Assembly (NCBI RefSeq): GCF_039555335.1
Contig: NC_092646.1
Location: 36,987,911 to 37,051,910, forward strand
Length of the DNA: 64,000 nt
Source of the DNA: Amphiura filiformis
Taxonomy: Eukaryota
Reading direction: 5' to 3'
Shown: one piece after another, positions 28,853-51,740 of the stretch
Layout of the letters: every line of letters begins with the position of its first letter
Numbering within the stretch: the first letter of the stretch is position 1
Notes under the pieces: generated by a model
What the model was told of the DNA's origin: nothing
Database searches by the model: none
The model's input: the letters and a program-made list of their open reading frames with translations, nothing else
Translations under genes and position numbers: made by a program

Positions 28853-29009
28853 TAATACCCTGATCTTTTTTAGTAAAAATAATGTCGCATGAAAGACGGA
28901 AACCACTCAGCCTTGTAGTATATAAGAAATCGTTAGATCCTATTTTCTTTTAATATTTGCTGTAGATATCGTCTCTGACTTCTGATTTAAGGAATCAGAT
29001 AGTAAGGTT

Positions 29010-29600
29010 TGCACCGTATTTTTTGTGGGATCTGAGAGCAAATCAGACATATCGAATTACATTCTGAATACAAGGAATGTCCTGATATTAAATAATTTTT
29101 GATTTTTTGAAATTCGCGATACAATACAAATTTTATGGTAAATTAATCAAATTTGATATTTTTGATATTTAACAGTCCTCGAAGTAAACATTATAAATCT
29201 AATGATATGTACTTAAAGTGTATGTTGCTGGGATGAAAAGCTGACCATCAATTGAAAATTTTGACCTTTCATATTGAAGATATACATTTTTTTCCCCAAA
29301 AGACCTCAATTATTTTGGTGGATTTGGAAAAAATGTTATATCTTCGATACGAAAGGTCAAAATTTTCATAAGATGGATGGTTTTTCATCCCAGGTCCATA
29401 TACTTTAAGTACATATCATTAGATTTATACAATTACTTTGAGGACTATTAAATTAAAAATATCAATTTTAATCATTGCCATAAAATGTAATATATCATAA
29501 ATTTGACAAAATCTAAATTATTTGATATCAGAAGGACATTTCCTTGTTTTCAAAATACAATTTGATATGTCTGATGTGCTCTCAGCTCCCACACACACAA
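29010..29600. mobile_element. FB-family perfect palindrome of ~590 bp.
   Basis: The left arm 29010-29300 is the reverse complement of the right arm 29310-29600, centred at ~29305. Confidence 0.85.
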
Positions 29601-30404
29601 AAAAACAAAAACAATGTGAACACATGACTTTCTTGTGTGTCTTTTTGACCCGACGGACATGTGACAGACGCCTGTTGTTTTTGTTGTTCAGACTGGTTGT
29701 TGCTTGTGTGTCTTTTTCAATACCTTTAAAAATGACATCTACACCCCCTCTATACCCCTCTGCAAGATCTTTCTTGTGTGCCTAGACACACAAGAAAAAA
29801 TTGACATACAAGCTAGTTTTGTACTAAAAAAAAGACACACAAGCAAAGCCTTGTGAGAACATCACTACCCAAGCCCTTAAAAGGATAATACAGGCTGTAT
29901 CAAAATGATTGGTACCCATTGGTTTTGGTGTTTATTGAAAAGCCAGCTTTTTTCAAAGGCGACATTGGAGTGACCAGAAATTATATTTCATAACCTTTAA
30001 TCACTAAAATGTATTCATAACCTCATTAATATACGCAGCAAGTGCGATCCAATCACAGATAATAACTTTTAAATATGCGGACGCAAATGCAGGTCATTGA
30101 AAAAGTATAATGACCGCGTCTCATCGGAAGAAAAACGTGGAGGGAAAGAGTGTAGATCTCGGGGGACGCCGTGCCATTGAACAAAATAAGCGGACGCTGG
30201 CCGCCGTATTTGGACATCGCATGATTGCGTGCTAGTGTGATTGGTCGCTAGCGGTATTTCCGTAATGGGCTATTCGATTTTTTACAGGAAAAACGACAGA
30301 TAGGTTAAAATTTTGTTCAGTTTTCAAATTAAAAGAAGAAAATGTGATGTAAATTGATTTAAAAAATGAAAAGTGACAGTTATGAATGAGGTTTTATGAC
30401 TTTG

Positions 30405-30545
30405 CATCAGTTATTTTTCGGGTATTGTGAAATACCTAAACATTTTGCTTGGACCTCGGAATATCCCTCAGGGATGCGCCCCTCGGGATATTCCTCGGTG
30501 CCAAAGCACAATGTTTAGATATTTCACAATACCCGAAAAACAACC
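30405..30545. repeat. ~140-bp hairpin-forming inverted repeat.
   Basis: gttatttttcgggtattgtgaaatacctaaacatt ... aatgtttagatatttcacaatacccgaaaaacaac. Confidence 0.7.
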
Positions 30546-30730
30546 GATGCGCCGTCATTAACCTCTAAACAAGTATTGGTGGATCTTATGTTGCACTTTG
30601 CTGATGAGGCAGTCTAGTCCATAATCTGAAAACTGATGGATATCAATCATTTTGATAGCTTATTAGCATATCTCTTTTAAAGCATACTATTTTTTCTGGT
30701 GGGTCTTTAGCTGGCTAATGGGCTGTTTAA

Positions 30731-30980
30731 TATAAAATCCACACTACCCCTGTGGAAGATTTTAGAAATCTTTTGGGTGAGCATGAATTTCAAATAGAAT
30801 GAGCACATTTGCAGCTCTATTTGAAACTGGCCCTCCCTCAGTGGAAGATTCAGATTGAATCTTTCTCAGAGAGTGTATAAACTGCCTAATGTGTTCATTG
30901 TATTTGAAATTCATACTCCCCCTGCGGAAGATATTTCCAAAATCTCCCACAGGGGTAGTGTGTATTTTAAATTGAATAGC
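30731..30980. repeat. Family H, 3 units.
   Basis: Same structure. Confidence 0.8.
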
Positions 30981-31289
30981 ACAATATTCATGGATTCAAG
31001 ATTTTTTTCTATTGAGATGTACTCTCTGGAAAATACCTGATGATACCAACTTCCCATCACATCATTCATGCACAGCTGCACGGGCAATTTATAGCAATTT
31101 CCGACATGTGTCCCTGTAATAGGTTTTCAGCTATCTGTGTTTCTATTGATAGTATTTATTGATGTAATCCAATTTTTTTCCCATTCTGATGAACATGTTA
31201 TCTACTGATGATAGTATTTACTTCATACAAGATATATAACATGAATTTATACAAAGCATTTCATTAACAGGGGTAGTAGAAATATTTGT

Positions 31290-33720
31290 GTTAAAATAGG
31301 TGTACTACATAGCATTATCTACTGATAGTATTGAATAGTAAGTCCTGAAATATGTGCGATGAAGTGGGTTACAATTTATCTACTGGAGGTAGCATTGAAA
31401 ACTTCAGTGGAATGTGTGTAATAAATTGGACATGCTATGTACTGAAGATAACACTGAAAACTTAAATGGAATATGTGTGATGAAATGTATTACACAAACT
31501 TTAAATAGACATGCTACAAAAACAATGTATCTACTGAAGATAGCATTGAAAACTTGATTGGAATATGTGTAATAAAACAACAAAGATACTATCTAGTATC
31601 TACTGAAGATATAGCATTGAAAACTTGACTTAAATATGTGTGATGAAATGTATTACACAATTTAAAAAAAAAGGCATGCTAGAAAAACAATGTATCTACT
31701 GAAGATAGCATTGAAAACTTGACTTGAATATGTGTGGTGAAATGTATTGAATGCAAACTTTAAAATAGACATGCTATCTACTGAAGATAGCACTGAAAAC
31801 TTGACTTGAATGTGTGTGGTGAAATGTATAAATGCAAACTTTAAAATAGACATGCTATCTACTGAAGATAGCATTAAAAACTTGACTTGAATATATGTGA
31901 TGAAATGTATTACACACATTTTAAAATAGACATGCTATCTACTGAAGATAGCACTGAAAACTTAACTTGAATATATGTGATGAAATGTATTACACAAATT
32001 TTAAAATAGACATGCTATCTACTGAAGATAGCACTGAAAGATTGACTTGAATGTGTGACAAATTATATTAAATGCAACTTAAAAATGGACATGCTATCTT
32101 CTGAAGATAGCATTAAACACTTGCCTGGAATGTGTGTAATAAAATGGACATGCTATCTACTGAATATAGCATTGAAAACTTGACTTGAATATGTGTGGTG
32201 AAATGTATTACACAAACTTTAAAATAGACATGCTATCTACTGAAGATAGCACTGAAAACCTGACTTGAATCAACATTGTGACGAATTGTATTAAATGCAA
32301 ATTTAAAATGGACATGTTATCTTCTGAAGATAGCATTGAACATTTGACTGGAATGTGTGTAATAAAATGGACATGCTATCTACTGAAGATAACACTGAAA
32401 ACTTAACTTGAATATGTGTTATAAAATGTACATGCTATCTACTGAAGATATAGCATTGAAAACTTGATTTATGTATATTTGGTGAAATGTATTACACAAA
32501 CTTTAAAATAGACATGTTATCTACTGAAGATAGCACTGAAACATTGACTTGAATGTGTGACAAATTGTATTAAATGCAACTTTAAAATGGACATGTTATC
32601 TTCTGAAGATAGCATTAAACACTTGACTGGAATGTGTGTAGTAAAATGGACATGCTATCTAAGAAGAAAGCACTGAAAACTTGACTTGAATATGTGTGGT
32701 GAAATTTATCACACAAACTTTAAAATGAACATGTTATCTACTGAAGATAGCACTGAAACATTGACCGAAACATGTGAAAGGAAAATGGATGTATGCTATC
32801 TACTAAAGGAAGCACTGAATTCTTGAAATATATTATGCCAACTTCAAAATAGATATGCTATCTACTGAAGATAGCACTGAAAACTGGAATATGTGTGATA
32901 AATTGGACATGCTATCTTCTGAAGATACCACTGAAACCTTGACATGAATATGTGCAGTTAGATGTATTACACCAACTTTAAATTGGACATGCTGTCTACT
33001 GAAGATAGCACTGAATGCTTGAATGAAACGTGTGTAATGAAATGGATATATGCTATCTACTGAAAATAGGAATTCTTGACATGAATATGTGTGATGAAAA
33101 TTATCACACAAACTTTAAAATGAACATGTTATCTACTGAAGATAGCATTGAATGCATGACTGAAACATGTGTAATGAAAATGGATGTATGCTATCTACTG
33201 AATTAAGGAAGCATTGAATTTTTGAAATATATTACACCAACTTCAAAATGGATATGCTATCTACTGAAGATAGCACTGGATGCTTGACTTGAAAGATGTA
33301 TGATGAAATGCTATCTACTGAAGATAGCACTGAAAACTTGACTGCTATCTTCTGAAAGATACCACTGAAACCTTGACATGAATATGTGCAGTTAGATGTA
33401 TTACACCAACTTTAAAATGGACATGCTATCTACTGAAGATAGAACTGAATGCTTGACTGAAATATGTGTAATAAAATAGTCACATTAGACATTCTATCTG
33501 CTGAAGGTAGCACTGATTCTTGACTTACAGATTCATGATGAAATGCTATCTACTGAAGATACTAAAATTTTAACTGGAATATGTGTAATAAATTGGATGT
33601 GCTGTCTACTGATGATAGCACTGAAAACCTTGGCTTGAATATATGTTTGATGAAATATATTACACAAACTTTTGCTATCTACTGAAGGTAGCAAGCAGTC
33701 AAAACTTGACCTGACACTCA
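31290..33720. repeat. Satellite array, ~82-bp unit x ~30.
   Basis: The unit is gacatgctatctactgaagatagcactgaaaacttgacttgaatatgtgtgatgaaatgtattacacaaactttaaaata. The core gctatctactgaagatagc is itself a near-palindrome. The ORFs 31662..31919, 32833..33111 and 33533..33721 are artefacts. Confidence 0.9.
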
Positions 33721-34184
33721 TCTCCAGTTTTGAACCAGAGCTCCCCCCACTTGACTTTCTTCACATAAACTTTGATGAAAATATTATGTGTTTTCTCACA
33801 ATTTAAGATCAAAACTACCCAAGAAAGCTCTATATCATGCATAAAACATCAACATTTTCACAGAGATGCCAATTTTCCAAATAAATTTGGAATTTTTTGC
33901 AATTTTTACAAAAAAAGTCTGATAAAAAAATGCACATTTCGCTTAAAACAATATTGCCGTCCATTTCTAATTGTCACCCCCATAGGCTTTACATGTAAAA
34001 TAAAAAGGCTCGTAAAAATTTAATAGCCTCTAGTAAGGATGTAAAATTCACACCAAATGCTTTTTGAGTGATTACAAAGATAATTAAATACTTTTCATTC
34101 GGGGGCTATGTGGAATTTTTTTTTATGTATTCCTTGTACAATGACATTTCACAATAAAATGTCCATTGGAAACAAAGGTGTGAA

Positions 34185-34900
34185 GGAAGCACTGAATTCT
34201 TGAAATATATTACACCAACTTCAAAATGGATATGCTATCTACTGAAGATAGCACTGGATGCTTGACTTGAAAGATGTATGATGAAATGCTATCTACTGAA
34301 GATAGCACTGAAAACTTGACTGCTATCTTCTGAAAGATACCACTGAAACCTTGACATGAATATGTGCAGTTAGATGTATTACACCAACTTTAAAATGGAC
34401 ATGCTATCTACTGAAGATAGAACTGAATGCTTGACTGAAATATGTGTAATAAAATAGTCACATTAGACATTCTATCTGCTGAAGGTAGCACTGATTCTTG
34501 ACTTACAGATTCATGATGAAATGCTATCTACTGAAGATACTAAAATTTTAACTGGAATATGTGTAATAAATTGGATGTGCTGTCTACTGATGATAGCACT
34601 GAAAACCTTGGCTTGAATATATGTTTGATGAAATATAATACACAAACTTTTGCTATCTACTGAAGGTAGCAAGCAGTCAAAACTTGACCTGACACTCATC
34701 TCCAGTTTTGAACCAGAGCTCCGGCAGCTCCCCCATTTGACTTTCTTCACATAAACTTTGATGAAAATATTATGTGTTTTCTCACAATTTAAGATCAAAA
34801 CTACCCAAGAAAGCTTTATATCATGCATAAAACATCAACATTTTCACAGAGATGCCAATTTCCCAAATTAATTTGGAATTTTTTGCAATTTTTACAAAAA
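34185..34900. repeat. ~715-bp segmental duplicate of 33195-33910, covering the satellite's 3' edge and its unique flank.
   Basis: The two blocks are near-identical (~99%) and separated by ~275 bp of unique sequence. The ORF 34511..34828 (-) duplicates ORF 33533..33721. Confidence 0.85.
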
Positions 34901-34985
34901 CATTTTACAAAATTCAGTGCCTAAATTCAGCGTATTGATACCCTAATTTAATGGTTTATAACATTGTTATTTTTGTGTTTTTCAG

Positions 34986-35083
34986 GTCTCAATGGTTGGA
35001 TGAGGATGTAACAAGACAAAGTACCTGTGACTTAGAGGCAGATGCCGTCGCTGTCGATATATTAAATAGATTGGAAATAGAAG
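34986..35083 (+). CDS. REV3L: REV3L-like exon: (R)SQWLDEDVTRQSTCDLEADAVAVDILNRLEIE-
   Basis: Acceptor tgtttttcag| and donor GAAG|gtgagc. Matches human PQSTCELDVDAVAADILNRLDIEAQ. Confidence 0.82.
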
Positions 35084-37305
35084 GTGAGCATTGAATGATG
35101 TACACTGCAGATTTTACCTTTTTTGTTAACCCCATGGACTCCACTGCATTTCTTACCACGCCCCGATTGGTTAATCACATTATATATGATAATCTGGGTA
35201 ACCAATCAAAATAGAGCTTTTATATGTGACACGATCTGGTCCATGGGGGGCCAAAGGCGGCATTTTTGAAAATTTAGTTACTGTGATTATTATATTATAC
35301 ATAGGCTATCATTTACTGAAAACACCAAAGGTCTAGCATACTTGGTTCTTAAGTTATAAAGTTTTTTGATGTCTATTTTCTTATGTATTTTATTGTTTTT
35401 TGTTAAATATTTTTACCTTTACCTCAGTTTCAAATTTGCCGCCTTTGGCCCCCATGGACCAGATCATGTCACATATCTCTCTGCATTTTTAAGCTTAATC
35501 CCTTTCAGCCTGACGGGCTATTCTTACCATATGTGACCGTTCACTACGATTGAGCCGTAAATTCCTCCCCTGGTCAATTTAGTTTTATTTCATGTTTAGA
35601 AAATATATATATCATAAGCTTTAAAATGGTATATCATTTGACTTCAAACGATATCCAGAAGCAGGGTTATGGTTTGTTGAACTTTGCTCTTTCTACATGT
35701 GTCTCTTTTTCCATATTGCTGGTAAAAATATCAAACAGTCATAATTGGCGGTCATTTCAAATCATCCCCAAGTCAACGAGGTCCTCTCACCACTTGAACA
35801 GGATTTAGCCAAAGCAAACAAAGACCAGAGCTATTTAAAAATTCTATAGAAATAGGTAGAAGCTTATTATCCTCTTCAGCAATATGATTATTGATTGCTT
35901 TAAAAGATGTTTGACTAGCGCAATTAAAATCAGATACTTGTCACACCAACTTGAGGTACGTATGAATATGACCTTCATGCACATTTTACACTATAACTCG
36001 GAATACAATTTAGGACATTTACGGCTCATTCGTCGTGTACGGTCACATATCTGATATCCCTGATTGGCTCAATACATGATATAATCCACTTTTTAACCAA
36101 TCAAAATAGTTCTTCAGGTAATCTGGTCGGTAATGCCATGGGGTTAAAGCCTATAGTTTGCGTCTGACAATCAACTTCCTCACAGCCCATGATTGTTTAG
36201 TGGTATGTAAAAGGAAGGTTGATTCATCTGGTGCCTTCATCGAAGAAAAGGAATTGCAGAAAATGGCCAAAAATGATGGTACTTTAAATAGGCATTGTTG
36301 ATATGGTGGTTCAGGAAAGAAAGTTTCCAATTTACGACTAGGTGCAAAATTAAGCATAGAGCACAATGTTTTACCGTTGCATTCAGAAATTTCAATCATC
36401 ACAACAAGTTGTAAACTCTACACCCCCGGGATGATGTGTTTTGCGACACTCAAAAGGGGGAATGAGGTGGAAGTACCCTCTTGGAATAGTGCTTGGGGAA
36501 GTTGGGAAAAGGTTGATTGCCTTGTGCACTTTTATAGACAACATACATGTAGACTTGCAAAGTTGTGAAAAAACACTAAAAAAATGAAAAATGCACCTGA
36601 ACTATTTCATACAATTTGTGCATGATATTTTCAAAGATGCAGGTATCTCATTCAATGGTTTATGTAATAATATGTACCAGTTCTTTGAATAATGTAATCA
36701 GTAACAAAGGCTTTAAAGCCTAAATAATGATCACAAAATGGTTAAGTTAATCAGCAATGAATGAAACTAATTGGTATCTAACATATATTATGTTCCCTGC
36801 AAGCAAATCTTGTACCCTTCCCAGAATCCTTTGCAACATGATATACGGGCCTCATTTCACGTAACTTTGTACAGGTTCCCTTTGTTTTTATGTTGAGATT
36901 AGAATGGTTCAATATGGGTCAATAAGGGATGCACCATAAGATATTATCAGGGAAAATGTGCCTCACTGATGAGTAAAAAAATGTTTTCCCTACCCAGCTC
37001 TGTATGGACCCCATTGGAAATAAGTTGGCATATTTAGCCAACTTTATGGGTTATCCTGGCTCATTGACTTGGTTGTGTGTTTCTTGTGATGATGATTGAT
37101 TGCTTATTTGTTATTTTCTGTATTGTTGTCAATTTTGCCAAATAAATAATAAATAAATAAATATACATTAACATTGAAAAAAAAAATTGCCCCCAAAGGC
37201 AGTGAAAAAAAAATATGCCGCCTTAGGCGGCGAAAAAAAAAAATTCCGCCTGACACTAACTCCCTAGCCCCCAATAATATTTAATGGTGCGTCCCTAATA
37301 AAAAA

Positions 37306-37640
37306 AGCAATATTTTGCAACATCTGGATGTACTCTGTTCATTGCAGTACATTTCATCACTATTCGCTACTTGCACGGTTCCGCCATTATGCACTATGTG
37401 CGGGGAGAGCCTCGAACTGGCAGCATACATGAATGGGAATTGAACTAGGCATAACGTTCTGTGTAAGGTTACATAATTCTTCCTTTCATGTATGCTGCCA
37501 GTTCGAGGCTCTCCCCGCACATAGTGCATAATGGCGGAACCGTGCAAGTAGCGAATCAACCAATTTTCCACTAGATAGCAAATCAGTACAGGAAATTAAA
37601 GTGGTTGAAATGCATTGTGGGAAGTGTAAAATATCTATCT
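37306..37640. repeat. Dispersed repeat (homologous to 508-640) carrying a ~190-bp insertion that is a 70-bp perfect inverted repeat.
   Basis: The inverted repeat is 37367-37436 / 37490-37559 (tcgctacttgcacggttccgccattatgcactatgtgcggggagagcctcgaactggcagcatacatga) with a ~53-bp loop. Its flanks align with 508-640, which lacks the insert. Confidence 0.75.
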
Positions 37641-37787
37641 TCTCTGGCATTATTTTATCAGCTTTTGTAGTTTGTTATGCTTCAGGAAATATCCAGATAT
37701 CTAAAAATAACATTTTTATATCTAATGTATTCATTTTATTATAATCTAACCATGGATGTTCAGTGGAGGATGGTGAGGACATGGTGC

Positions 37788-38270
37788 TGTTCCATTTGAA
37801 ATCTATACACCCCCTGTGGAAGACATGACCTTAATCTTCCACACAGGGAGTGTAAATTTCAAATGGGATTGCCTGAATGGGCGATTCCATTTGAAATGGG
37901 ATTGCCTAAATGGTGATTCCAGTTGAAATTTACACCCCCTGTGGAAGACATGACCTTAATCTCCTACACAGGGAGTGTGAATTTCAAATGGGATAATCTG
38001 AATGGGTGATTCCATTTGAAATCTACACCCCCTGTGAAGGACATGACCTTAATCTTCCACACGGGGAGTGTGAATTTTAAATGGGATAGCCTGAATGGGC
38101 GATTCCATTTGAAATCTACACCCCCTGTAGAAGACATGACCTTGTCTTCCACACAGGGAGTGTGAATGGGGTAACCTGAATGGGTGGCTCCGTTTGAAGT
38201 CTACACCCCTTGCGCAGGAGAGAAAGATCATGTCTTCCATAAGGGGTATGGATTTCAACTGGAATAGCAC
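37788..38270. repeat. Family H, ~6 units with internal tandem duplication.
   Basis: Repeated gattccatttgaaatgggattgcct.aatgg. The ORFs 37964..38152 and 38049..38306 (-) are artefacts. Confidence 0.8.
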
Positions 38271-38425
38271 AATTGTCTGTTTTTTATGTTTCCTTCCTTG
38301 TTTCACAAAATTTTACTGACTTACTGTAATCGGTTTTCAACTAACACTGAAACACAAGTTGTCTTAGTTTGTTTTGTTTTCTGGCATACTAAAATTTATA
38401 TAAAAAAAGAATAAGCTAAAGTGGG

Positions 38426-38700
38426 TTATTCCATTTAAAATCCACACTACCCCTGTGGAAGATTTAGCTCAAGTCTGTCACAGAGGAAGTATCAATTTTG
38501 AATAGAATTGACAATTGGGAAACTTCCATTTGAAATACTCACTCCAGCTGTGGAAGATATTGGTAAAGCCATAATACAGGGGAAGTATGGGTTTCAAAAT
38601 GATTATCTCTGGCCAATTACATTTGAAAAACATACTCCCCCTTTGTACGATATTTCCAAAATCTTCCACAGGGGTAATGTGGATTTCAAGTGGAATAGCC
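38426..38700. repeat. Family H, 3 units.
   Basis: Same structure. The ORFs 38478..38723 (-) and 38508..38894 (+) are artefacts. Confidence 0.8.
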
Positions 38701-40367
38701 CAATACATGTACACAAAGTACAACTGGGAATGAATACTGTAAAACTACTTTTTTTTAATTTAATTTTTAATTTAATTTTTTTTATTTATTTGTTCGGGAT
38801 TTTGACAACCCTGGATAACCCAAGCTCTATTGAAGCTTATTTCCATTGGGGTCCATTTGAATACCGGGACGGGTTGGGAACAGTCAGGGGTTAACACCCT
38901 ACTCTTTTCGAAATTGGCTGTGAGATACATGTACAGGTATGGCTCTCTGCCACTTAATTTCGCTGGGGATATAATTTCGCTAATTTAATACACACTAATC
39001 TGACAGTTTTACATGTTTTGTTTGCTGAATTAGTGAAATTAAATATCAATGAAAATGGTAGTCCTTGGAAATGAGCAAAATCAAGAACTAGCAAAATTAA
39101 ATAGCTTTACAGTATATGTGATCTTATTGCACATTTAATGTGGAAGGGTGAGGTTATTGTCTGTTTGTTTGATGCTTGCTGTGATCAGTTGTCAACAGAA
39201 ATATTGTTTGATAAATTAGAATGTGAACTAAAGGGTGCAAACCACCAAATCAAGTTCCTATTCTTCTATGTGTTAAAAGGTATAGATAAATTGATAATTT
39301 TCTCATGATTAAAACTCCCTGGTTCATTCAAAACACCATTTTGCCTAATGTTTATGATATCTTCTACCATATAACCAATAATTTTTTGGTAGGTAAGCAG
39401 TAGTGGTGCACCATTTTGCCTAATGTTTATGATATCTTCTACCTTATAACCAATAATTTTTTGGTAGGTAAGCAGTAGTGGTGCATTGAAAACTACGTAA
39501 ACCCTATCAATCTTACAGCACACTGTCTTTATGAAGTGACATCATATGGTGGCGTAGATCCAATAACATACCTCAAATTTCAGAATGTAATCTTTTTATG
39601 CTTAGATGTTGAGAAAACCATCCACTAAAGTACAGTTATCACAAAAAAAATCAGGCATATCAGCATTCTTTTCAATTTTTTTTGTCATGAAATCAAGCCA
39701 GTATGGTTCTCAGAATGAAAACACTGTATTTTTTGGTATCAGCCATTTAGCTCTGATCCAATTTGGTGTTGTGAAATCTAAACATTTGGAAAGACTTCAC
39801 TAAATATGTGTACACAAAGTTGAAGCTGAAATAAATCAATAGGGCATCGCACATTGTAAGTTAGAAATAATATTGTCTGTTCTATGTTTGTTTGCTTGCT
39901 TTATGACTTGCTGTGTTAAGTTTTAATATTAACACAAGTAAAATGACCTGTACTCAATTTTTCAGAAAATAAATCTTGAATATTATTTACATATATACCA
40001 GTATTCAGATCATTACTTTATGTGAATTTTTTTATATGCCCATAAGGTACTTTTATGGGAAATGCACCATTGGGCACAATCAGGGTTGTAGCGACGGTGG
40101 CGGCGCTGGTCGGCAATAACCAGTTCAGCCTGACTGACCGGCACTCATGGGAATTAATGGGTCTTGCCGACCAGCACTAAAATGACAAATTGTCCTCAAA
40201 ACAGCTGTCAAATGCCATTACTGTCTTGAAGTAATTGGCATTCTGATTCAATTTTCTCTTAATTTTAGCCGGCACTAAACTTTGACTAGCTACAGCCCTG
40301 GCTGCACAATTTGACCCGATTTGTTTTTATGGGCACAATTTGACCCAATTTGTTTTTATGGTTGCAG

Positions 40368-40994: not shown

Positions 40995-41232
40995 GGGGTT
41001 CTCGATTATATTTGCTCACAGGCCATAGGAGGGTCAAAATCATTGCAAAGATTGTCTTTTTGGGCCAAATACACATTGGTTTGCTATGTTTACTGTACAT
41101 TTCAGAACTGATAAAGGGCCAACCAAAAACCAAGGCCAAATACACATTGGTTTGCTATGTTTACTGTACATTTCAGAGCTAAAGGGCCAACTGCAATTAG
41201 TCAGTGGGCCGCCTATTGAGAACTCCTGACCT
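40995..41232. mobile_element. MITE-like element with an internal ~70-bp tandem duplication.
   Basis: TIRs caggggttctcgat / ctattgagaactcctg. The unit ggccaaatacacattggtttgctatgtttactgtacatttcaga is duplicated at 41062 and 41137. Confidence 0.55.
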
Positions 41233-42190
41233 AAACGTATCCCTAATATTAACGGTAACCCTAACCTGAAATGCCCCAAACACTATCTTTAACCCTTTTA
41301 GGACTAATGACCTTTTGGATAAATAGTGTGTTTCCATCCATTGCAGTGTACCAATATTTGGGGAAGACTCAAAGATGCAGACAGATAGTGACTAAAAAGT
41401 CACAACAATATAGAAGGAACTAATCTTGAATTAATAAATAAACAAATAAATAAAAACATTCTAAATTAAAATTGGTCATGGAAAAACATTCCCGCTTCAA
41501 ATGAAATATCATAATATTGATAATCATATTTAGTTAGTAAAGTAAAAAAAAGGGTCATCAACATGAATAAAATATAAAGACGATTGAAAAAAAAACCACA
41601 CACAAATAACCATTACCGTGTTAAAGTGACAGGTCAATAGCTGTCAATAGATAACCAAATAAAGATACTGTGTCTTTTTGAAGTGTGCCAAATACAAGCA
41701 TGGTTGCTTGAATACGGTATAGTTAATTTTTCACGCTGGGTTAATTTTTGACGATTTTATCAATTCTGGACAGTTTAGTAGTTGTTTAATTTGTGTTTCC
41801 AAATTTTTTCACGTTATGTACTATGTGTAATAAATATTTTTGTGTGAATAAAAATTCGCGGCTGCCTGTTCGACCGCGAAAAGCACGAAAATTAAACTCT
41901 GCGAAAATTTCCGGCTAGACAGTAGTGGCTCAAATTACTGAAGTCGTCCAATTTTTCTTTCAAATATTGGTTTCTATGGGACAGGAAACTATTGGAAATC
42001 ATGGTGTGACGATATTAGAAAGTCACCCAATTATTTTCATAACATTGGTTTCTATGGTAAAGAAATGGTAACAAGTCACTAAAAATCTTCAAAATTCACC
42101 CAATTGGGCTATAAAATTATGCATTTGGCAACCTTGACATATAGTGATAATCCAAATCTGACCTGTACTGTACACACACACAATCATGGG

Positions 42191-42393
42191 GCTATTCCAG
42201 TTGACATCTATACACCCCCTATGAAATTAAAGGACATGATCTTAGTCTCACAGTCACACACAAGGGATGTAGATTTCAAATGATTAAGTCGCCCATTCAG
42301 ATTACGGTAACCCCATTTGAAATTCACACTCCCTGTGTGGAGGATTAACATCATGTCTTCCATGGTGTGTGTATGGATTTCAACTGGAATAGC
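42191..42393. repeat. Family H, 2 units.
   Basis: Same structure. Confidence 0.8.
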
Positions 42394-43239
42394 TAATTGC
42401 AAAAGTTACCTGGTGTAGGTTTTGTTATTGATTGCTAAGATTGACCCGACTTAGAAAATGGCATATTTGTGTGACCCTTAAGGGTATCCGTAGGGAGAAC
42501 ACTAAGTGATACGGCCAGGTCTGGCCAGGTGCATGTTTGTTCGCAGTCTACAGGTGTAACTAGGTTGTTGTATATTCTATAATTTTCCTGGCGTGTTAAC
42601 TGTGATTACATCTAGACACCAGTTTATTTTTTATTTGAACGGGACCCTAATTTAATGAGAAAAACGCCGAAAAAGAGAGGCCCGGCAAAAGCCGATTTGC
42701 AGACAATTTTGTAGCTACAGACAGCTCGTATTCCATATAACAACTACGGAAACCAATCAGTGCCAGAAGTGTTGATTTATATTTCATCCACTTAGGTTTG
42801 GCTTAACCCACTAAAAGGTAAAACTTTAAGGCTGATCATTTTAATTATAAATGTAGTGTGTGTGTAAAAGTATATTTCTCAAAATGGAGGAGCGCGCCTA
42901 TGACTATTGTCCGTTCTGTCTACATGGTCTATGATAATTGTTTTCTTACCGAAATATATTCACTTAACACAGACCACGGTTGCCAAACAAATGAGGGCAA
43001 ACCGCATGGTCAAATCATTGAAAAGTCGCCCAATATTTTTTTTATCAACCGTTGGTTTCTATGAGATAAAAAACTACCAGAAGTCGCGTAAGCCAATGTT
43101 GCGAAGTCATGCAATATTTTTCTTAACCATCAATTGGTGTCTATAGGACAGGAAATTGTCGCGAGGAAAATCTTCAAAACTCATCCTATTGACCTAGGCC
43201 TATTACATCGCGGGTTTGGCAACCCTGCAATCGCACCGC

Positions 43240-45110
43240 ATTGTGAGGTGAACGAACTGAATGTTGACATTGTATTCAGGATTTAAAACAAGAACTGTCT
43301 TTAAACAGACAATGCGGTTGGTATAAAACATAGCGTGTGATATCATGATATCAACTTCAAAATCTAAAAACAAAAGTAAAGAAATAATTTAGGGCGAAAT
43401 AAATAAACAGCGTACAGCAGGTGCTATCTTGTCAATAATGATAAGAGGAACATGAAAATAACCAGCAGAGAGCATGCACCCCAGTAAAGAGTTAAATAAA
43501 GCAAGGAAAAATCATAATGTGCAGAAGGCCTACTTTTCGGATGATATTCACAGAAACAAAAATAAAGAACTAAAGATCTAAAAACAAAAGTAAAAAAAAT
43601 GAAGGCGAAATAAATAAACAGCGTACAGCATGTGCTGACTTGTCAATAACGATAAGAGGAGCATGTACCTCAATAAAGAGTTTAAATAAAACAAGGAAAA
43701 TCATAATGTTCAGAGGCCTACTTTTAGGATGATATTCACTGAAACAGAAAAAAAGAAATAAGTTTAAAGAATTATATATTTTAAGATTAGATAATGAACA
43801 ATCATACATAAAAATGTGACATGTGTCTGATGATATTTATACACTTGAGCAAAAAATAAAGAACTACTTAACACGCGACATAAATAAATAGCCATATTTT
43901 ATGAGCGAACTGCATGTTGACATTGCGGACCAGGATTTGAAACAAGAACTGTTATCAAAAAGAAAACGCGGTTGGTATAAAAACATAGCGTGTGCTATCA
44001 TTATATAAACTTCAACATCTAAAAACACAAGTAAAGAAATAATTTAGGGCGAAATAAATAAACAGCGTACAGCAGGTGCTATCTTGTCAATAATGATAAG
44101 AGGAACATGAAAAACCCAGCAGAGAGCATGCACCCCAATAAAGAGTTAAATAAAGCAAGGCAAAATCATAATGTGCAGGAGGCCTACTTTTCGGATGATA
44201 TTCACAGAAACAAAAATAAAGAACTACGTTAGTACGTTTAAAAAATTATATAATTTGAAATTAAATAATGCAAAATCATACATAAAAATGTGACATGTGT
44301 CTGATGATAATTATACACTTCGACCAAAAATTTAAAAAATACTTAACACGCGACATAAATAAACAGCCATCTATCAAGAATGACAAGAGGAACATGAAAA
44401 AAAACACCTAATATATGAGAGCATGCACCCCAATAAAGAATTGCTTTAAAATAAAACAATGAAAAATCATGACATGTGAAATGTATGTTGATACACTTAT
44501 ACATAATACTCAAGGGTGAAATAAAAAACACCTTATCTACCGATATTTCCACAGTTAAACATACTCAGTGATCACTTGTACTAAAACAAAAATAAAGAAA
44601 TACTTCACAAATGATAAGAGGAACACATAAAAAATAAATAAGCGAGCATGTCCCAAAAAGAATTAGTAAAAGATAAAATAATGATAAAACTTACAAGAAG
44701 GGGCAAAAATATTTGTCGCAAAAACTTATTAAATGCTCATTTGCTCTAAGATATTTAATGTTTGCAATTTACTCCTAGTTTATCATTTATTTATTATTTA
44801 TCTAGGCTTATATATCTTTTATTTATTTATCTATTAATTTATCTATTTATCAATTTATTTCAATATCATTATTATTAAGTGCCTATTTATAATGATATTT
44901 AAATCTATCAACATTATGCTTACGTCATCCAGGAGTTATTATCCCACTTGAAATCGCCATATAAACACAAATTAATAAAGAAATACACAATGGGTGAAAT
45001 AAAAAGCATGATCTATCTTTTCAAGAATGAAAAGAGGATATAAAAATATAACAGAGCATGTCCTATAAACATGATAAAGAATTATTTAAAATCGTACAAA
45101 TGTGAAACAT
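43240..45110. repeat. A-rich minisatellite: ~215-bp subunits in a ~650-bp higher-order arrangement that decays towards 45100.
   Basis: aaaaacaaaagtaaagaaataatttagggcgaaataaataaacagcgtacagcaggtgctatcttgtcaataatgataagaggaacatgaaaa...gcatgcacccc.ataaagagttaaataaagcaagg.aaaatcataatgtgcag recurs at ~43365, 43580, 44015 and 44330. Confidence 0.8.
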
Positions 45111-45142
45111 GTAATATGGAATAAGCGTTTTGAGCGTTTCGA

Positions 45143-45771
45143 CAGTATTTTTTGTGGGAAATGAGAGCACATCAGACATATCGAATTGCATTCTGAATAC
45201 GAAGAATGTCTTTCTCATATCAAATAATTTTCATTTTTTGAAATTCACGATATAATGCAAATTTTATGACAAATTATTAAAATTTGATATTTTTCACATT
45301 TTCGATATATAACAGTCCTCGAAGTAAATTTTATAAATCTAATGACATATTCTTAAAGTGTATGTAGCTGGGAGGAAAAGCCGACGATCAATTGAAAATT
45401 TTGACCTTTCATATTGAAGATATGGATTTTATTTCCCAAAAAGACCTATTTTGGGGGGGAGGGGGGGAAATCCATATCTTCAATACGAAAGGTCAAAATT
45501 GTCAATTGATCGTCGGCCTTTCCTCCCAGCTACATATACTTAAAGAATGTATCATTAAATTTATAAAATTTACTTCGAGGACTGTTATATATCAAAAATA
45601 TCAATTTTTAATGATTTGTCATAAAATGTGTATTACATTGCAATTTCAAAAAATCAAAATTATTTGATATCAGGACATTCTTAGTATTCAGAATGCAATT
45701 CGATATGTCTGATGTGCTCTAATGTCCCACAATAAATACTGTCCAAACGTTCACACCCCAGCCCTTAACAT
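45143..45771. mobile_element. FB-family perfect palindrome of ~630 bp.
   Basis: Centre at ~45462 (ttttggggggg|agggggggaaa). The right end is ...cgttcacaccccagcccttaac. Confidence 0.85.
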
Positions 45772-45802
45772 AAAACAAAATAAAAGCGGTCATGATAATA
45801 CG

Positions 45803-46892
45803 GGTGTCCCAAAAGTAACTTAACATTGTGAATTTGCCATAACTTGCGTTGGGTTAATAGTGTTGTTACAAAAATTGCACAGAATGTAGATAATATTTTT
45901 AGAAATGTTATGATACCAAACATCCATATGTGGTCATGATCCTTTAACATGAAATTAGCGAATATTTACCGTACCGTAAAACCCACTTTTATAAACGCAA
46001 AATAAGTCTCGTCATTTGAGACGTGATAACACGATATATAACGTGTTATTGTTTTAAAATCTGTTTTGTTTAAGTTGGCTGTGTTTGTTTGTTTGTTTGT
46101 TTTCAATGCGTAATCTTCATTTTCTGGTTTATCTGGATTTTATATGGAAACTGCTTTTCTTTTCTGCGGATTTGATGAACAGTTGTACGCGGTACATAAT
46201 TGGAAGTCGACGTACTGATCGTCTTGGGCTTTTCGCCACCGCTCTTCGTATGACATCGATGTTTGTAGCCGATCTTCCTGTTCTTCCACGTCCTGCCGAG
46301 GTAGATCATGAACAGATCCAGTTGATAGGAATTTATGCACTAGTTGCTGGATTGTATTTCGGCTGGGTGCATAATTTACATTAAAATTTTCCTTAAACTT
46401 TGCTTGAATGAGTTTGTCCGACTTTGTCTCGGCTCGGCAAAGAACCATACGATCTGAATCCGTTGATCTATAGGAAATTCATCTTCACTTCAACTGTTTT
46501 AAAGTAAAGTTTAATATTGTCAATATATCCTAATTATAATCTAAAACAGCAGTCACGCTTATGCTAGGCCATGTAATCCATGAATGTTCATACCTAAATG
46601 TAGCGTGTGCAGTGAGTGAACCAACTCTATTGTTCAGGAAAGCACATTATAATGAATAATTATTCATGTGCTTGAATAAAAAACATATGAGCTTGCTTTT
46701 GTGGGTTTGATACACACATGTGTACACCCCTACAGTAGGTCAAGGGGTCGTCAATAATGCTGTTTTTGGTATCAGAATAATTCTAAAAGATCAATCTATG
46801 TGAATATGTTCTCCATTTTGGTATGAAGTAGGAAATATTTGAGATATGGCAAATTCACAATGTTAAGTTACTTTTGGGACACGCTGTATGAC
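45803..46892. mobile_element. Non-autonomous Tc1/mariner-like element with 38-bp TIRs.
   Basis: gtgtcccaaaagtaacttaacattgtgaatttgccata at 45804-45841, and its reverse complement at 46853-46890. Confidence 0.8.
46140..46448 (-). pseudogene. Remnant of the N-terminal HTH of a Tc1-like transposase.
   Basis: The ORF peptide ...SRNTIQQLVHKFLSTGSVHDLPRQ... resembles the Tc1 motif (S.QTIVRKYKHHGTT...RSGR). There is no DDE domain and the frame decays afterwards. Confidence 0.5.
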
Positions 46893-49800
46893 ATTAAGGG
46901 CGAACACCACTAATGAAGCGTCTTGGTTGAAATGCACGTGAAAATTAATGTCTTTCTTTGCTCAATTTGAGGCCTTTTTGGCTCTCATAGTTGCCTGCTG
47001 TACCCCGTTACATTTTATTAAGAAACAAGGTAGTATAGTTTCTCTCTATTGATTTTGCAATGGCGTCTCCAGGAGGGGGGCTCAGAGGGGCTTTCAGATT
47101 TATGCGGTGGGGGGGGGGGCTTAATGGCTAAAATCGCCAAAAACCGCCTGATTTTACATATCCCTCTAGCGTTGGTTGTCAGCACATTGCAGTCACTCCT
47201 CATCAAGTGTTGACAAAGACAACAGTGGTTGTTGAAACGTACACAGTAAGTGCATTTTCTTGGATCAGATACTACGAACTCTGGTTTACTAGTTTACTCT
47301 ACCGATCCTGATGAATTTGTTCAATCAATAACGATATATGGGGACCAATCACAAGCCAGATTCATTTAAAGATGCATTACATCATGACCAATTTTAGTTA
47401 GGCCCTGGCCTAACTCTCCATAGAATCCCGTGTTAAAAATGTTATCCGTAATCCAAAGTCAGTAGTCCACTTGGGAAGCTAACAAACAGAGGGAGTACGG
47501 TGACTGAAAAGATTAGATGTGAAAATCTATCAATTGTGCACAAATAATAATCAAGAGTTTTAAGCTTAAATGCAATAGCCAGAAGCACAATTGGCAAGTG
47601 GAGTACGGAGAAGTCTAGCTACACCCTGGAAGGAAAAAAAAACCAGTATTTGAAACGAGGAAATGTGCAATATGACTTAATGTAATACATTAGAAAAGGC
47701 TTAAAAGGCAACTATTAGGCTCTGATTCATATTTAATCCTCATTTAGGCCTGTAAATTAGATTGTCTGTGTAAATTTAGCAGGATCCGACTTTTTATGAC
47801 GACTTTCAAAATGTGTTACATTTCAGAAACACCAAGCTGTTTGTGAGGTGGCGTTAGCTGTATGGGTTATAGGTTGAACTTTTACAATATTTCTGGGAAA
47901 AAATCCTGAAATCCATATATATTAATTTTTACAATGGATGTCGTCATCTGACCTTCTGCTTGCAGAAAGGGAAGTTTTGAAGAACTGAGTTGTTTTCCGG
48001 CCCCTGTCTGTACAGAAAGTCAGTGGGGGTTATTTACTGGTGTGCACCCTAAAAGGCCCTTGTCATAACCAATGGTGGCGGCATGATTTTTCCGTGCATG
48101 AGGGTTTAGGCCAAATTAAATTATATGTCTAAACTTGAGGTTGCATGTGTAAAACATGGTCTTTTTTTAACGCATGTTTGGGGTATTGAAATGATATTCT
48201 TTTGGCTTGCACAATCATGGTAAAGATCCATGTCATACATAAGAGATTATAGGACATACAATACTTGGTAGGCCTAATGATAATGCGTAAACTTTGTACC
48301 TATTAGGGAACTGAAATCAGACTGAAAACACAAACGTCATTCGGAGGCTCTGTCTCACCAGTTGCATTTACAAGGCCCTTGTTATAACCAGTGGTGGCGG
48401 ATGATTTTTTTCTTGTTGTGGGGGGAAGGGTCACACAAGGTTCTGAACAGAAACGTCACATACGGACCAACCCACACTACCGAGAACCGCGAATGCCGAG
48501 AACCGCGAAAGCCGAGAACCGCTCTAGTTTTCTTTAAAAATCAACAGACTTCAGAAGTAAACATGGTAAACAAGTCTCGCTCATATAACTATTCTGTGTT
48601 GCCAAATCCTTTTCAATCATAGTCGTCTTGTAGTATGCGTGATCCGTCAAGCATGCACATTAACATCACATGCGGGGATGAGGGGTTAGTGCATGTATGT
48701 AATATGCTTAATACAGCACTAATTTTGTTGGGTTAAACTTAGAACTTAAAAACTGTTTCCCTTGTTTTTACAATTTGTGATTTTAAGTTTCCGTACATTG
48801 ACCTGAACACAAAAGGAATATATACGGCAAACTATGTGCGTTGTCATTTTTGCGGTTGCAGCTTGGAACGCAAAAATAAATGTAGCGCAGTAATTTCCAC
48901 TTTCACAGTAGTTACTGGTCTCGGATACCCACTGTATTTGACTTTCGCTGTCCTATATTTGTCCTAAATTTTCATTCAAAATAGTCCTATATTATTACTA
49001 TGTAGATGCAAGGACTGGCCTGAAGCCCTGTATAAATTGAAAGTCCCATTATATAAATTGCCCCATTGAAATTGTTTGCTGTAGCTTAAAGCCATGCTTG
49101 GTTACATAATATATATGGTATAGTCCAGATATAAGAGATATGAAGTTTTGTTGTGTATTTTGCATGAATGCATTTTTGAAATAGGATGACTTTATTTGAC
49201 CTACATAATAAGGCTAAAGAAATTGTTATTTTGTTGGAACCTACTTTTGAAACGAGTTGTATTGCCTACTTCATGCACTAGTTGTTGTTTTTTTGTTTGT
49301 TTGTTTGCTTTGGTAAAAATGCAATTCTCTTGTGGAATTTATGTGAAATTTTTTAATTTAATTTCTGAAAAGCAAAGCGCATCTTTACATCAAAGTTATC
49401 TAAGCATTGAGTTGCAATGGCAGTGACATTGATTAAAGTTACACAACAATACTCAAAAACTGTCAAAAGGATCAGAAACTGTCAATCGGGATTTTATTCT
49501 TTTGTTGTCTGTCATGGTGCTGACCACAGTGATTTTCAGTGTCATAGGACTTCAGTACTTGGTAGTGTTGCCTGAAAAATATTGAAGGAACTGCCACTCA
49601 TCTGATTTACAATGTTAACACTGATATTTAAAAAAATAATGAAGAAACGAGACGGCCAATATGCTTCACCCTGGCAGGGCATACATAAGACAATGCGAGA
49701 CGCAATTAATATGTGAGGATCGGAAATAAATGATGTAAGCCCAAGAAATTATGATTAAATGACTTTATAAAGCTTGGACAAACTGACATGTATAAATTTA

Positions 49801-50117
49801 GAGAGCAGAAAAAAATCAGGACTCAGCATGGTTGGAACCCCAGACCTCATCACTAGGGTGTACGCTTCTTAGCTGCATGTCCCTGTGTTGTTGTTTAATG
49901 GTTTATGGAATGATGTGGGGCCGTAGTGGTCAGTGACAACCTATAAAGTATGCTGAGGCTTATGGATCAACGTCAAGGCGTTCTGCCTGTGCGTAGCGCA
50001 CTATACCACCGCACTTAAAAAACATTTGAGTAGCATACTTTATTCACTTTAAAATTTAACATATATATGTTGGTTGGTATCACGGCAGGTTAAAATTATT
50101 TTCATTGTTTTTTCCAG

Positions 50118-50202
50118 ACCGTGTTGATTTGCCCGATGTAGAGAGTGAGCTGCGTGGCAAGGCTAGACTACAGGAAATAATCCAAGACCACATGAATCAA
50201 CT
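50118..50202 (+). CDS. REV3L: REV3L-like exon: DRVDLPDVESELRGKARLQEIIQDHMNQ-
   Basis: Acceptor tgttttttccag| and donor CAACT|gtaagt. Similar to human ...KKFQKRLQEILKQ. Phase consistent. Confidence 0.75.
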
Positions 50203-50823
50203 GTAAGTGGATGGTAAAATGTTAGAAATGACAGAAATGTGCATATAGTTCAACCACTTTTATAAGGACTTCTTTTAAACAGATATCTCCATTATCTGGC
50301 TGACCAGTTGCCTTGGGGTCAGTGGTTTGAACTATCTGATTGGTAATAAGTTAAGGGGTCAGTGGTTTGAACTAAGTAAAGGGGTCAATCCTATCTGATT
50401 GGTGATAAGTAAATCCACACCTGCAAAGGGCATTTGAATGAAAAAACCATGCTGAACAATATGTACTCTTTAAATTTGAGGAGCTCATAATCAACAGGAA
50501 TTGTTGGGCTTTTTACCACTGCACCAAAAAGTAAGAGTGATATTAATAGTTGACCTGTCTGGTCTACATTATGTGTGTTAAAGAAAGTAGACAAAAGACT
50601 AGTTTGTGATACTTATTGGTAGATGTCGCAAGACAATTCTCGAAGTAAAATATATTGATATTAATCCGCGATGTCACAAGTCCCGCCGATTGCAAGCTGA
50701 TCAAACAATATTTCAATCCCATTTATCTCCATCATCTGGCTAGCCACTGGCCCTATGGCCAGTGGCTACAAGTGTCTGATTATAATTAGTGATAAGTAAA
50801 TCCACGCCTGCAAGGTGTTTGAA

Positions 50824-51037
50824 TTAACCCCATGAGAACTACCTGCCTATTGGTCAAAAAGGAGTTTTCATTATCAATTGGACCAATCAGCAACATTGTT
50901 AGAATAATTTCACCATGCAAAAATGGGGGTGATCGAATTATTTGCAAAACTTCATTCTGATTGATTAAAATGAAGATATCATGTAATTGACTAATCAGAG
51001 GCAATGTTAGATTGGCAGGTAGTGCTCAAGGGGTTAA
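50824..51037 (+). mobile_element. Same MITE family, full length, flanked by TTAA on both sides.
   Basis: ttaaccccatgagaactacctgcctattgg ... gattggcaggtagtgctcaaggggttaa. Confidence 0.85.
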
Positions 51038-51103
51038 CAATATATTCACTAGCAGACTATGGTAATTATAGTCTAATGGGAACCTGCAGACATGGTTGTT
51101 AGG

Positions 51104-51740
51104 TTAAGGGCTGGGGTATGAACGTTTGGACAGTATTTATTTTGGGACATTAGAGCACATCAGACATATCGAATTGCATTCTGAATATGAAGAATGTCAT
51201 TCTGATATCAAATAATTTTGATTTTTGAAATTCGCAATTTAATACACATTTTATGGCAAATCATTAAAATTGATATTTTTGATATTTAACAGTACTTGAA
51301 GTAAACTTTATAAATCGGATGATTTATACTTAAAATGTATGTAGGTGGGATGAAAAGCCGACGGTCAATTGAAAATTTTGACCTTTCATATTGAAGATAT
51401 GGATTTTTTCCCCCAAAACACCAAAAAAATTAGGTCTTTTGGGAAAAAATCCATATCTTCAATATGAAAGGTCAAAATTTTCAATTGACCGTCGGCTTTT
51501 CCTCCCTGCTACATACACTTTTAGAACATATCATTAGATTTATATAATTTACTTCGAGGACTGTTATATATCAAAAATTTGAAAAATATCAAATTTTTAT
51601 AATTTGTCATAAAATTTGTATTATATTGTGATTTAAAAAAATGAAAATTATTTGATATCAGAAAGACATGCTTCAGTATTCAGAATGCAATTCGATAGGT
51701 CTGAGGTGCTCTCATGTCCCACAAAAATACTGTATTAAAC
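51104..51740. mobile_element. FB-family perfect palindrome of ~640 bp with a TTAA terminus.
   Basis: The left end ttaagggctggggtatgaacgtttggacagtattt is the reverse complement of the 45740-45771 right end. Centre at ~51425. Confidence 0.85.

Follow-up and report, generated by a model that had tools for sequence, protein, structure and literature searches.

Several large inverted repeats of about 650 bp lie within a 64-kb window (the whole stretch of DNA analysed here) of the genome of the brittle star Amphiura filiformis, and they raise two questions: what these structures are and which enzyme moved them. This genome comprises 59% repeats and has experienced bursts of DNA transposons (PMC11310086). 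The repeats sit in introns of a DNA-polymerase-zeta-like gene, and the product of an open frame at 59981-64000(+) matches an Amphiura filiformis protein at NCBI with 100% identity; the POL3_N exon had no counterpart in a PDB sequence search. Our analysis indicates that they are five relics of one non-autonomous class II family, foldback and MITE-like in form, which probably inserted at TTAA, was most likely mobilised by a Kolobok transposase and is now immobile.

Five copies of one foldback family

The copies are listed below in plain coordinates of the window.

10500-10649, plus strand: truncated copy retaining ~150 bp from the outer part of one arm; its A-type tip reads TAAA/GGGATCAGATAG
28987-29636 (right limit approximate), no strand assigned: full copy c1, the most diverged, centre near 29310
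45118-45768, minus strand: full copy c2, inverted relative to c3, centre near 45449
51104-51771, plus strand: full copy c3, which alone has kept both ends and defines the reference orientation ('B' end left, 'C' end right)
55923-55979, minus strand: solo terminal fragment, ~57 bp long, whose tip is of the A type

The boundaries of c3 are clear on both sides. TTAA at 51104-51107 is followed by GGGCTGGGGTATGAACG..., and the left arm reaches about 51426; the right arm extends to 51767 (...GGATCCC) and is followed by TTAA at 51768-51771, with GGATCCC/TTAA occupying 51761-51771. The right end of c2 is likewise intact (...CGTTCACACCCCAGCCC, then TTAA at 45765-45768), while its left ('C') end is eroded, with the final ~13 nt unrecognisable and the start placed at about 45118. 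A mariner-like element with TA flanks adjoins this copy. c1 starts with TTAA at 28987-28990, then GGAATCAGATAG..., an 'A'-type tip; its right tip is eroded by intruding (TG)n/A-rich runs, and CACATGACTTTCTTGT at 29621-29636 is its tentative end. The truncated copy carries a 9-nt internal deletion (nhmmer E = 1.7e-27), and the solo terminal fragment (nhmmer E = 1.7e-07) reads TCAA/GGAATCGGATAAC...GTGGGACCTGAGAGCACATC in reverse complement.

All six arms and both fragments can be aligned with one another. By blastn, c2 and c3 share 89% identity over 663 bp in reverse orientation and 84% in direct orientation, and an arm-derived 30-mer occurs six times in the window versus zero expected. Together, the three full copies and two fragments amount to about 2.2 kb, or 3.4% of the 64 kb. 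These results support the proposal of an earlier, sequence-only reading that the repeats are foldback-type mobile elements of one family. Three two-armed inverted elements of ~650 bp do exist at about the sites it named, and the left-arm-only copy that it placed at 10503-10660 is real, at about 10500-10649. Its limits were roughly right in position but needed revision: c1 runs from 28987 to ~29636 rather than 29010-29600, and c3 starts at 51104 as described but ends at 51771, not 51740. The centre of c2, given as ~45462, was found near 45449, and the terminal fragment at 55923-55979(-) was missing from its list.

The elements have no coding capacity. The longest ORF within a copy has 91 aa and spans the centre of c2; the other copies do not conserve it. 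A Pfam search of the open segments of at least 70 aa in the window, up to about 57.7 kb, detected no transposase domain; its only matches were to POL3_N, in exons of the host gene, to DUF4817, in the remnant of an HTH, and, below threshold, to the Hermes DBD. A three-frame pseudo-protein of the consensus foldback matched nothing in a set of 5.8 billion proteins, and 30-33-mers conserved in the arms had no exact match among metagenome, GTDB genome or viral contigs. In size (under about 800 bp), lack of coding sequence and possession of TIRs and a putative TSD, the elements have the structure of MITEs.

The arms are imperfect and the foldback is ancestral

Each full copy consists of two inverted arms of ~320 bp separated by a spacer of 14-38 nt, for a total of ~650 bp. 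The identity between the two arms of c1, c2 and c3, respectively, was 79.3%, 84.8% and 84.1% by blastn, 73%, 81% and 78% by global alignment over all columns, and 84%, 90% and 87% when only substitutions were counted. Within a copy the arms differ by 30-47 substitutions plus 35-47 gap columns, and the longest perfect runs are 28, 37 and 58 bp. The arms had been described as almost perfect, which is not what we observed (73-81% over all columns, many indels, perfect runs of 28-58 bp). Concerns about cloning, deletion and assembly had been attached to that perfection, and they fall with it. As single-stranded DNA the copies fold well, as a check of folding energies bore out: -171.7 kcal/mol for c1 (z = -21.7), -244.2 kcal/mol for c2 (z = -48) and -225.9 kcal/mol for c3 (z = -29.7), compared with about -57 kcal/mol for shuffled sequences.

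Two explanations that do not involve transposition bear on this architecture, and we consider them extremely improbable. The first is that the palindromes are assembly artefacts made from fold-back reads. Since a chimera of this kind would give identical arms, the divergence of the arms rules it out; in addition, three loci that each have unique flanks show this same architecture, and there are two fragments besides. The sequence-only reading had named such an artefact as its own possible undoing, and it is excluded by these observations. The second is that the host maintains the hairpins under selection, for example as small-RNA precursors. Their very favourable energies would fit this explanation, as would their intronic position on the transcript of the host gene, from which a hairpin RNA could form. 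However, Rfam gave no match over the whole window, uncompensated mismatches have accumulated in the arms at a roughly neutral level, and the copies occur in both orientations. We saw no sign of function.

We compared arms within and between copies over their gap-free core. Identity within a copy was 83.7% for c1, 90.9% for c2 and 88.0% for c3, and that between arms of different copies ranged from 78 to 93%, with the left arm of c2 and the right arm of c3 at 92.8%. The two arms of one copy thus resemble each other no more closely than they resemble the arms of other copies, which means that the foldback predates the copies: the ancestral element already had it, and the arms have not been homogenised.

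The divergence of the arms also bears on the age of the copies. Arm-to-arm K2P distances range from 0.076 to 0.26, and a neutral rate taken from the literature (1.885e-9 per bp per year) converts them to about 20-68 Myr, which suggests insertions of roughly that age. Among the full copies, c1 and c2 have each lost a tip. The best reading is that the copies are old and now immobile and that each arm has diverged on its own. What the window contains is ordinary, decayed transposon DNA; long perfect palindromes, with the risk they would pose to assembly or to the stability of the genome, are not present here.

The termini abut TTAA and begin with GG

The ends of the elements were examined next to their flanks. 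Only c3 retains both ends, as TTAA/GGGCTGGGG...GGATCCC/TTAA, and it alone has TTAA on both sides. Its left tip is shared with the right end of c2 (TTAA/GGGCTGGGG), and its right tip reads inward as TTAA/GGGATCC. The left tip of c1 is TTAA/GGAATCAG, and those of the fragments are TAAA/GGGATCAG and TCAA/GGAATCGG. TTAA therefore adjoins all six recognisable ends, exactly at four and with one mismatch at the two in the fragments (TAAA and TCAA), which bears out the earlier proposal of TTAA ends. All six tips begin with GG (GGGCT, GGGAT or GGAAT), so the opposite strand finishes with CC. The two tips of c3 match at only about 9 of the first 15 positions. The pair of termini previously reported for the family, ttaagggctggggtatgaacg ... 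cgttcacaccccagcccttaa, does not occur together in any single copy: ttaagggctggggtatgaacg comes from the left end of c3 (51104), cgttcacaccccagcccttaa from the right end of c2 (45768). Because c2 is inverted relative to c3, the two quoted termini are one and the same end of the element.

Outside TTAA the flanks share nothing conserved among copies. Those of c3 (...gttagg/TTAA and TTAA/gcggtc...) have nothing in common beyond the tetranucleotide, and no direct repeat of 8-10 bp surrounds this copy. Rebuilding empty (pre-insertion) sites from the flanks yielded none within the window, and TTAA is therefore a putative rather than a demonstrated duplication of the target site.

A Kolobok transposase is the most likely mobiliser

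Kolobok elements combine a TTAA TSD with 5'-RR...YY-3' termini, 'unlike piggyBac' (PMC9587614), and the T2-MITE motif is TTAA plus AGGRR (PMC6004289). The elements in the window have the TTAA flanks and the 5'-RR...YY-3' termini of this signature; the exact AGGRR motif of T2 is absent. Since they start with 5'-GG and end with CC-3' beside TTAA, Kolobok is the likeliest enzyme family and piggyBac is not, and the two terminal bases, a weak indicator by nature, thus point to Kolobok as the transposase superfamily. The six-frame translation of the window gave no match to a Kolobok core HMM, which was built from the published alignments in the supplement of PMC9587614.

We propose that the ancestor was an element of about 650 bp with two inverted ~320-bp arms placed nearly head to head, lacking a middle domain, a gene and tandem subrepeats. 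An autonomous relative would have supplied the transposase in trans. This enzyme may have bound terminal and subterminal sequences of the arms and excised the element, which would then have reinserted at TTAA with duplication of the tetranucleotide.

The sequence-only reading attributed the same non-autonomous foldback to a piggyBac/PGBD-type transposase. We regard this as unlikely, although several observations fit it. All recognisable ends abut TTAA, the subterminal inverted repeats of some piggyBac-like elements are long and can reach 400 bp (PMC5381638), and the window contains 215-bp MITEs with piggyBac-style ends (TTAA/CCCC...GGGG/TTAA), one of them 66 bp from c3, so a piggyBac-type transposase was probably once active in this genome. 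However, C is highly conserved as the opening base across 157 piggyBac-like elements, whose TIRs start with the motif C[C/A/T][C/A/T]..., and excision requires the 3' terminal G and is abolished when this base is lost (PMC5381638). Every intact tip examined here has G first and C last, against this C-first/G-last rule: the elements start with G-G-G/A after TTAA and end with C-C before TTAA, which leaves a mobiliser of the piggyBac type unsupported. In addition, DDE_Tnp_1_7 (PF13843) had no match among the open segments of at least 70 aa in the window up to about 57.7 kb.

The grouping of these elements with the 215-bp MITE is likewise not supported, as the tips of the MITE are CCCC...GGGG and those of the elements GG...CC. 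Another foldback in the window, at 7347-7962, has the tips TTAA/AGGGG and TTAA/GGGGG in the AGGRR style of Kolobok/T2. The differing tips of this foldback and the 215-bp MITE show that two kinds of TTAA element are present in the window, and the T2-type tip on the former indicates that this genome has non-autonomous elements of the Kolobok style. A TTAA flank by itself is thus no sign of piggyBac; it is the first and last bases that separate the two kinds.

It is also conceivable, but in our view quite unlikely, that a different superfamily was responsible: Tc1/mariner (TA target, tip starting with AGGG), Sola (4-bp TSD) or a TTAA-specific group that has yet to be described, for example. The full TTAA would then be partly element sequence or a target preference. 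Sola elements generate 4-bp TSDs; for Sola3, no statement on the TSD was found in the literature checked. TTAA is palindromic and contains TA, so the border between element and target cannot be fixed without empty sites, and the mariner-like element with TA flanks lies beside c2. On the other hand, T precedes TA at four of four intact ends, for which we calculated a chance of ~0.3 each and ~0.01 jointly, and c3 lacks a flanking direct repeat of 8-10 bp. PIF/Harbinger (Tourist-like elements with a 3-bp direct TWA TSD) was rejected: with symmetric GGG/CCC tips assumed for c3, its left flank would be TAA and its right flank TTA, and these two do not form a direct repeat.

With Kolobok as the preferred mobiliser, one may speculate further that brittle stars harbour a classical TTAA-type Kolobok lineage consisting entirely of foldbacks, in which ~35-nt tips (A, B and C) are swappable on a shared arm core and imperfect intronic hairpins of ~300 bp are transcribed as part of the host pre-mRNA and may enter small-RNA or RNA-editing pathways; we consider this extended scenario very unlikely. 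Followed across the whole genome, the family could provide a record of classical Kolobok-type activity in ophiuroids and contribute to the dating of a wave of DNA-transposon activity, a modest gain in annotation rather than a new kind of biology.

Comparison with known systems

According to the literature, different lineages of transposons have each acquired the foldback form on their own (PMC4079207). The elements resemble the classical foldbacks (FB, Tetris and Galileo of Drosophila, TU of sea urchin) in their very long arms, which form most of the element, and in the predominance of non-coding copies. Classical foldbacks have tandem subrepeats in the arms, a middle domain and TSDs of 8-10 bp (PMC4079207), whereas the elements described here have almost no middle domain, TTAA flanks and no subrepeats in the arms, where TRF at a minimum score of 30 reported only two-copy runs of 8 and 9 nt. 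An FB/TU-type foldback was rejected on these grounds, the long arms being the one feature in common; subrepeats and an 8-10-bp TSD were not seen.

With piggyBac-derived MITEs (the coral CMITEs, PMC2872659, and the 215-bp MITE of the window) the family shares TTAA flanks, small size, the lack of coding sequence, multiple copies and an inner sequence that is more conserved than the extreme tips. The terminal bases, however, are complementary: G first and C last here, C first and G last there.

A further close resemblance is to the non-autonomous Kolobok elements of Xenopus (T2-MITE, Xmix and relatives), although the two differ in several respects. The T2 tip is AGGRR, whereas GGGCT, GGGAT and GGAAT lack the leading A; the T2-MITEs have short TIRs around a unique core, whereas our elements are one long inverted repeat throughout. 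The link to Kolobok is here through the ends and not through a transposase, and the introduction of PMC9587614 does not give echinoderms among the hosts of classical Kolobok, reporting only the atypical KolobokP lineage. Nevertheless, both groups have TTAA at both ends, a purine start (GG here) and a pyrimidine end (CC), both are short, non-coding and multi-copy, and in both a given element has only loosely similar tips at its two ends, as in the table of full-length Xenopus Kolobok elements (PMC6004289; PMC9587614).

Foldback copies and arm divergence

Blastn of the three foldback copies (c1, c2 and c3) against the window showed that the inverted repeats are real and form a single family, with each locus matching the other two in both orientations; two terminal fragments were additionally matched. 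A profile search with the six arms recovered exactly those six arms and the two fragments, one of which is the left-arm-only copy noted in the sequence-only reading.

28987-29636, foldback copy c1
45118-45768, foldback copy c2
51104-51771, foldback copy c3
10495-10649, plus strand, fragment, six-arm profile match
55923-55981, minus strand, fragment, six-arm profile match

The description of the arms as almost perfect palindromes was not upheld. Arm-versus-arm identity for c1, c2 and c3 was 79.3%, 84.8% and 84.1% by blastn and 73%, 81% and 78% over all columns of a global alignment, in which the two arms of a copy were separated by 30-47 substitutions and 35-47 gap columns. Perfect runs reached at most 28, 37 and 58 bp, respectively. 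Folding energies calculated for single-stranded DNA (-171.7, -244.2 and -225.9 kcal/mol, versus about -57 for shuffled sequences) did bear out the foldback structure. The spacer between arms is 14-38 nt and the palindrome extends nearly to the centre. Within each arm, conservation is high in the core, which reaches from about ACAGTATTTTTGTGGGA to the centre, and lower in the tip, the outermost ~35 nt. No tandem subrepeats were found in the arms, and ORFs in the copies reached at most 91 aa, with none common to different copies.

The terminus pair previously quoted occurs in no single copy. TTAAGGGCTGGGGTATGAACG is found once at c3 left and once, with one mismatch, on the reverse strand at c2 right. 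Since c2 and c3 are 89% identical over 663 bp when reversed and 84% when direct (blastn), they are mutually inverted, and one end had been paired with itself. The right border of c3 had been placed about 30 bp short of its true end, ...GGATCCC-TTAA at 51761-51771. The eroded tips are c2 left, the counterpart of this GGATCCC end, and c1 right.

Arms produced by a chimeric fold-back read would be identical. Here the arms carry dozens of private substitutions and indels at three uniquely flanked loci, as drifted old copies would, and the possibility that the centres are such assembly artefacts was therefore rejected. In the gap-free core, same-copy arm identity was 83.7% (c1), 90.9% (c2) and 88.0% (c3), while arms of different copies ranged from 78% to 93% (c2 left versus c3 right, 92.8%). 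This overlap indicates that no conversion has kept the arms of a copy alike. The ancestor was a slightly asymmetric foldback already, with arms that drifted independently afterwards. K2P arm distances of 0.076-0.26, combined with the published neutral rate (1.885e-9 per bp per year; PMC11310086), would place the copies, roughly, at ~20-68 Myr.

Termini and the candidate transposase

Three recognisably homologous tip types were distinguished.

Type A, GGRATCRGATAR..., c1 left and both fragments
Type B, GGGCTGGGGTRTGAACGTTTGG..., c3 left and c2 right
Type C, GGGATCCAAAATGAAGCGTTATTATGCGTTT..., c3 right and, in part, c2 left

The reported TTAA ends held up: four of six recognisable tips abut an exact TTAA and two a one-mismatch TAAA or TCAA. 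No conserved sequence was found outside the TTAA across these tips, which sets the element border there. No empty, pre-insertion site was found within the window. A PIF/Harbinger 3-bp target-site duplication (TSD) is excluded for c3, whose left (TAA) and right (TTA) flanks do not form a direct repeat, and a bare TA target is disfavoured by the T that precedes TA at all four intact ends.

The inverted pair c2 and c3 (45118-51771) has its B-type ends pointing inward across 5.3 kb, a composite-transposon-like layout. Joint mobility of the pair is unsupported: c2 has lost its outer tip to erosion, and two copies would be inverted by chance in 50% of cases. A 9-mer, AAGCGGTCA, lies just beyond the c3 right TTAA (51770-51778) and about 20 bp beyond c2 right (45786-45794), probably by chance.

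TTAA flanks are common to piggyBac and Kolobok, the latter making TTAA-specific 4-bp TSDs (PMC9587614). The first and last bases tell the two apart. In 157 piggyBac-like elements surveyed, C is strongly conserved as the first TIR base (motif C[C/A/T][C/A/T]...), and excision needs a 3' terminal G (PMC5381638). Every intact tip here has GG first and CC last, in agreement with the 5'-RR...YY-3' Kolobok signature (PMC9587614) and against the piggyBac-type mobiliser previously proposed. Together with c3, the one copy intact at both ends, these two terminal bases tilt the assignment modestly toward a Kolobok-type family, probably mobilised by a Kolobok transposase.

Pfam searches of all open segments of 70 aa or longer found no transposase catalytic domain in the window; they returned only host exons, a Hermes DNA-binding match below threshold and the remnant of a DUF4817 helix-turn-helix. 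Because Pfam has no Kolobok model (PMC5751038), an HMM was built from 13 published Kolobok cores; it had no match in the six-frame translation of the window.

Other repeats and the host gene

22538-22752 and 50824-51034, 215-bp MITE, ends TTAA-CCCCATGAG...GGGG-TTAA, also read TTAA-CCCCATGAGAAC...GGGG-TTAA
2806-3767, three further 215-bp MITE copies, head-to-tail tandem array, 325-bp period
7347-7962, second foldback, ~615 bp, ends TTAA-AGGGGTAC and TTAA-GGGGGGTAC, also given as TTAA-AGGGGTACTACACCCC and TTAA-GGGGGGTACTACACCCC
45798-46890, mariner-like element, ~1.09 kb, directly right of c2, TA flanks
46143-46478, minus strand, DUF4817 helix-turn-helix remnant (Pfam)
31371-34900, satellite-like array, nested periods of 59, 80 and 137-279 bp
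19879-20154, 20670-20950, 25058-25245, 26075-26260, 28670-28852, very abundant palindromic MITE-like repeats, ~180-280 bp
30716-30986, 37780-38270, 38424-38705, 42190-42393, further copies of these
59936-64000, plus strand, giant open exon, >1355 codons, continuing past the window edge
62990-63523, 180-bp x3 coding tandem repeat inside the giant exon
2622-2906, plus strand, host exon, Pfam POL3_N profile positions 1-57, E = 6.6e-11
15793-16020, plus strand, host exon, POL3_N profile positions 54-81, E = 5e-9

The family, the 215-bp MITE and the 7347-7962 foldback had been lumped together; tip styles split them into two classes. The MITE's ends are of piggyBac style, an internal contrast to the foldback family, and its array resembles the tandem MITE arrays of coral CMITEs. 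The second foldback, with an internal palindrome (7608-7860, 90%), is of T2/Kolobok style, carrying the AGGRR tip by which Xenopus T2/Kolobok MITEs are defined. The mariner-like element, which contains the DUF4817 remnant, has 41-bp TIRs that are 97.6% identical (...GTGTCCCAAAAGTAACTTAACATTGTGAATTTGCCATA) and looks much younger than the foldbacks. Within the satellite-like array, a 718-bp segment is duplicated (33205-33914 versus 34183-34900, 97.9% identical). Some palindromic MITE-like repeats lie in 93-bp tandem units (37889-38167); translations of this repeat family give recurrent "...EIHTPPVEDISKIFHRGSVDFKWNS..."-like peptides, which explain several of the longest spurious ORFs.

The window is ~35% G+C and densely filled with short inverted-repeat elements, and its longest reading frame apart from the giant one is 142 codons. 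Positions 59981-64000 (plus strand) match, at 100% identity, a protein from a 60-Mb contig that NCBI lists as "uncharacterized protein [Amphiura filiformis]". POL3_N is the N-terminal domain of family-B DNA polymerase delta/zeta catalytic subunits, and the host gene looks REV3L-type, or polymerase-zeta/delta-like. The POL3_N exons and the giant exon place all the foldback copies in introns of this gene. The published genome is 1.57 Gb with 59.3% repeats and DNA-transposon bursts (PMC11310086).

Comparison with known elements

The feature is real but ordinary: copies, now decayed, of a foldback transposon family that is non-autonomous and inserts at TTAA. The near-perfect long palindromes behind the feature's apparent rarity were not upheld. 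The family is probably previously uncharacterised, in an under-studied genome. Classical foldbacks carry tandem subrepeats in their arms, possess a middle domain and are flanked by TSDs of 8-10 bp (PMC4079207). All three are absent here, and membership among Drosophila FB/Tetris/Galileo or sea-urchin TU elements was rejected. The structure is better described as a foldback-shaped MITE, which fits the independent origin of foldback architecture across transposon lineages (PMC4079207). Among known kinds, the family comes closest to a Kolobok-type non-autonomous element. Xenopus T2-MITEs, relatives of Kolobok, are defined by TTAA and AGGRR (PMC6004289); compared with the T2 group, the present family lacks the leading A of AGGRR and is one long inverted repeat throughout.
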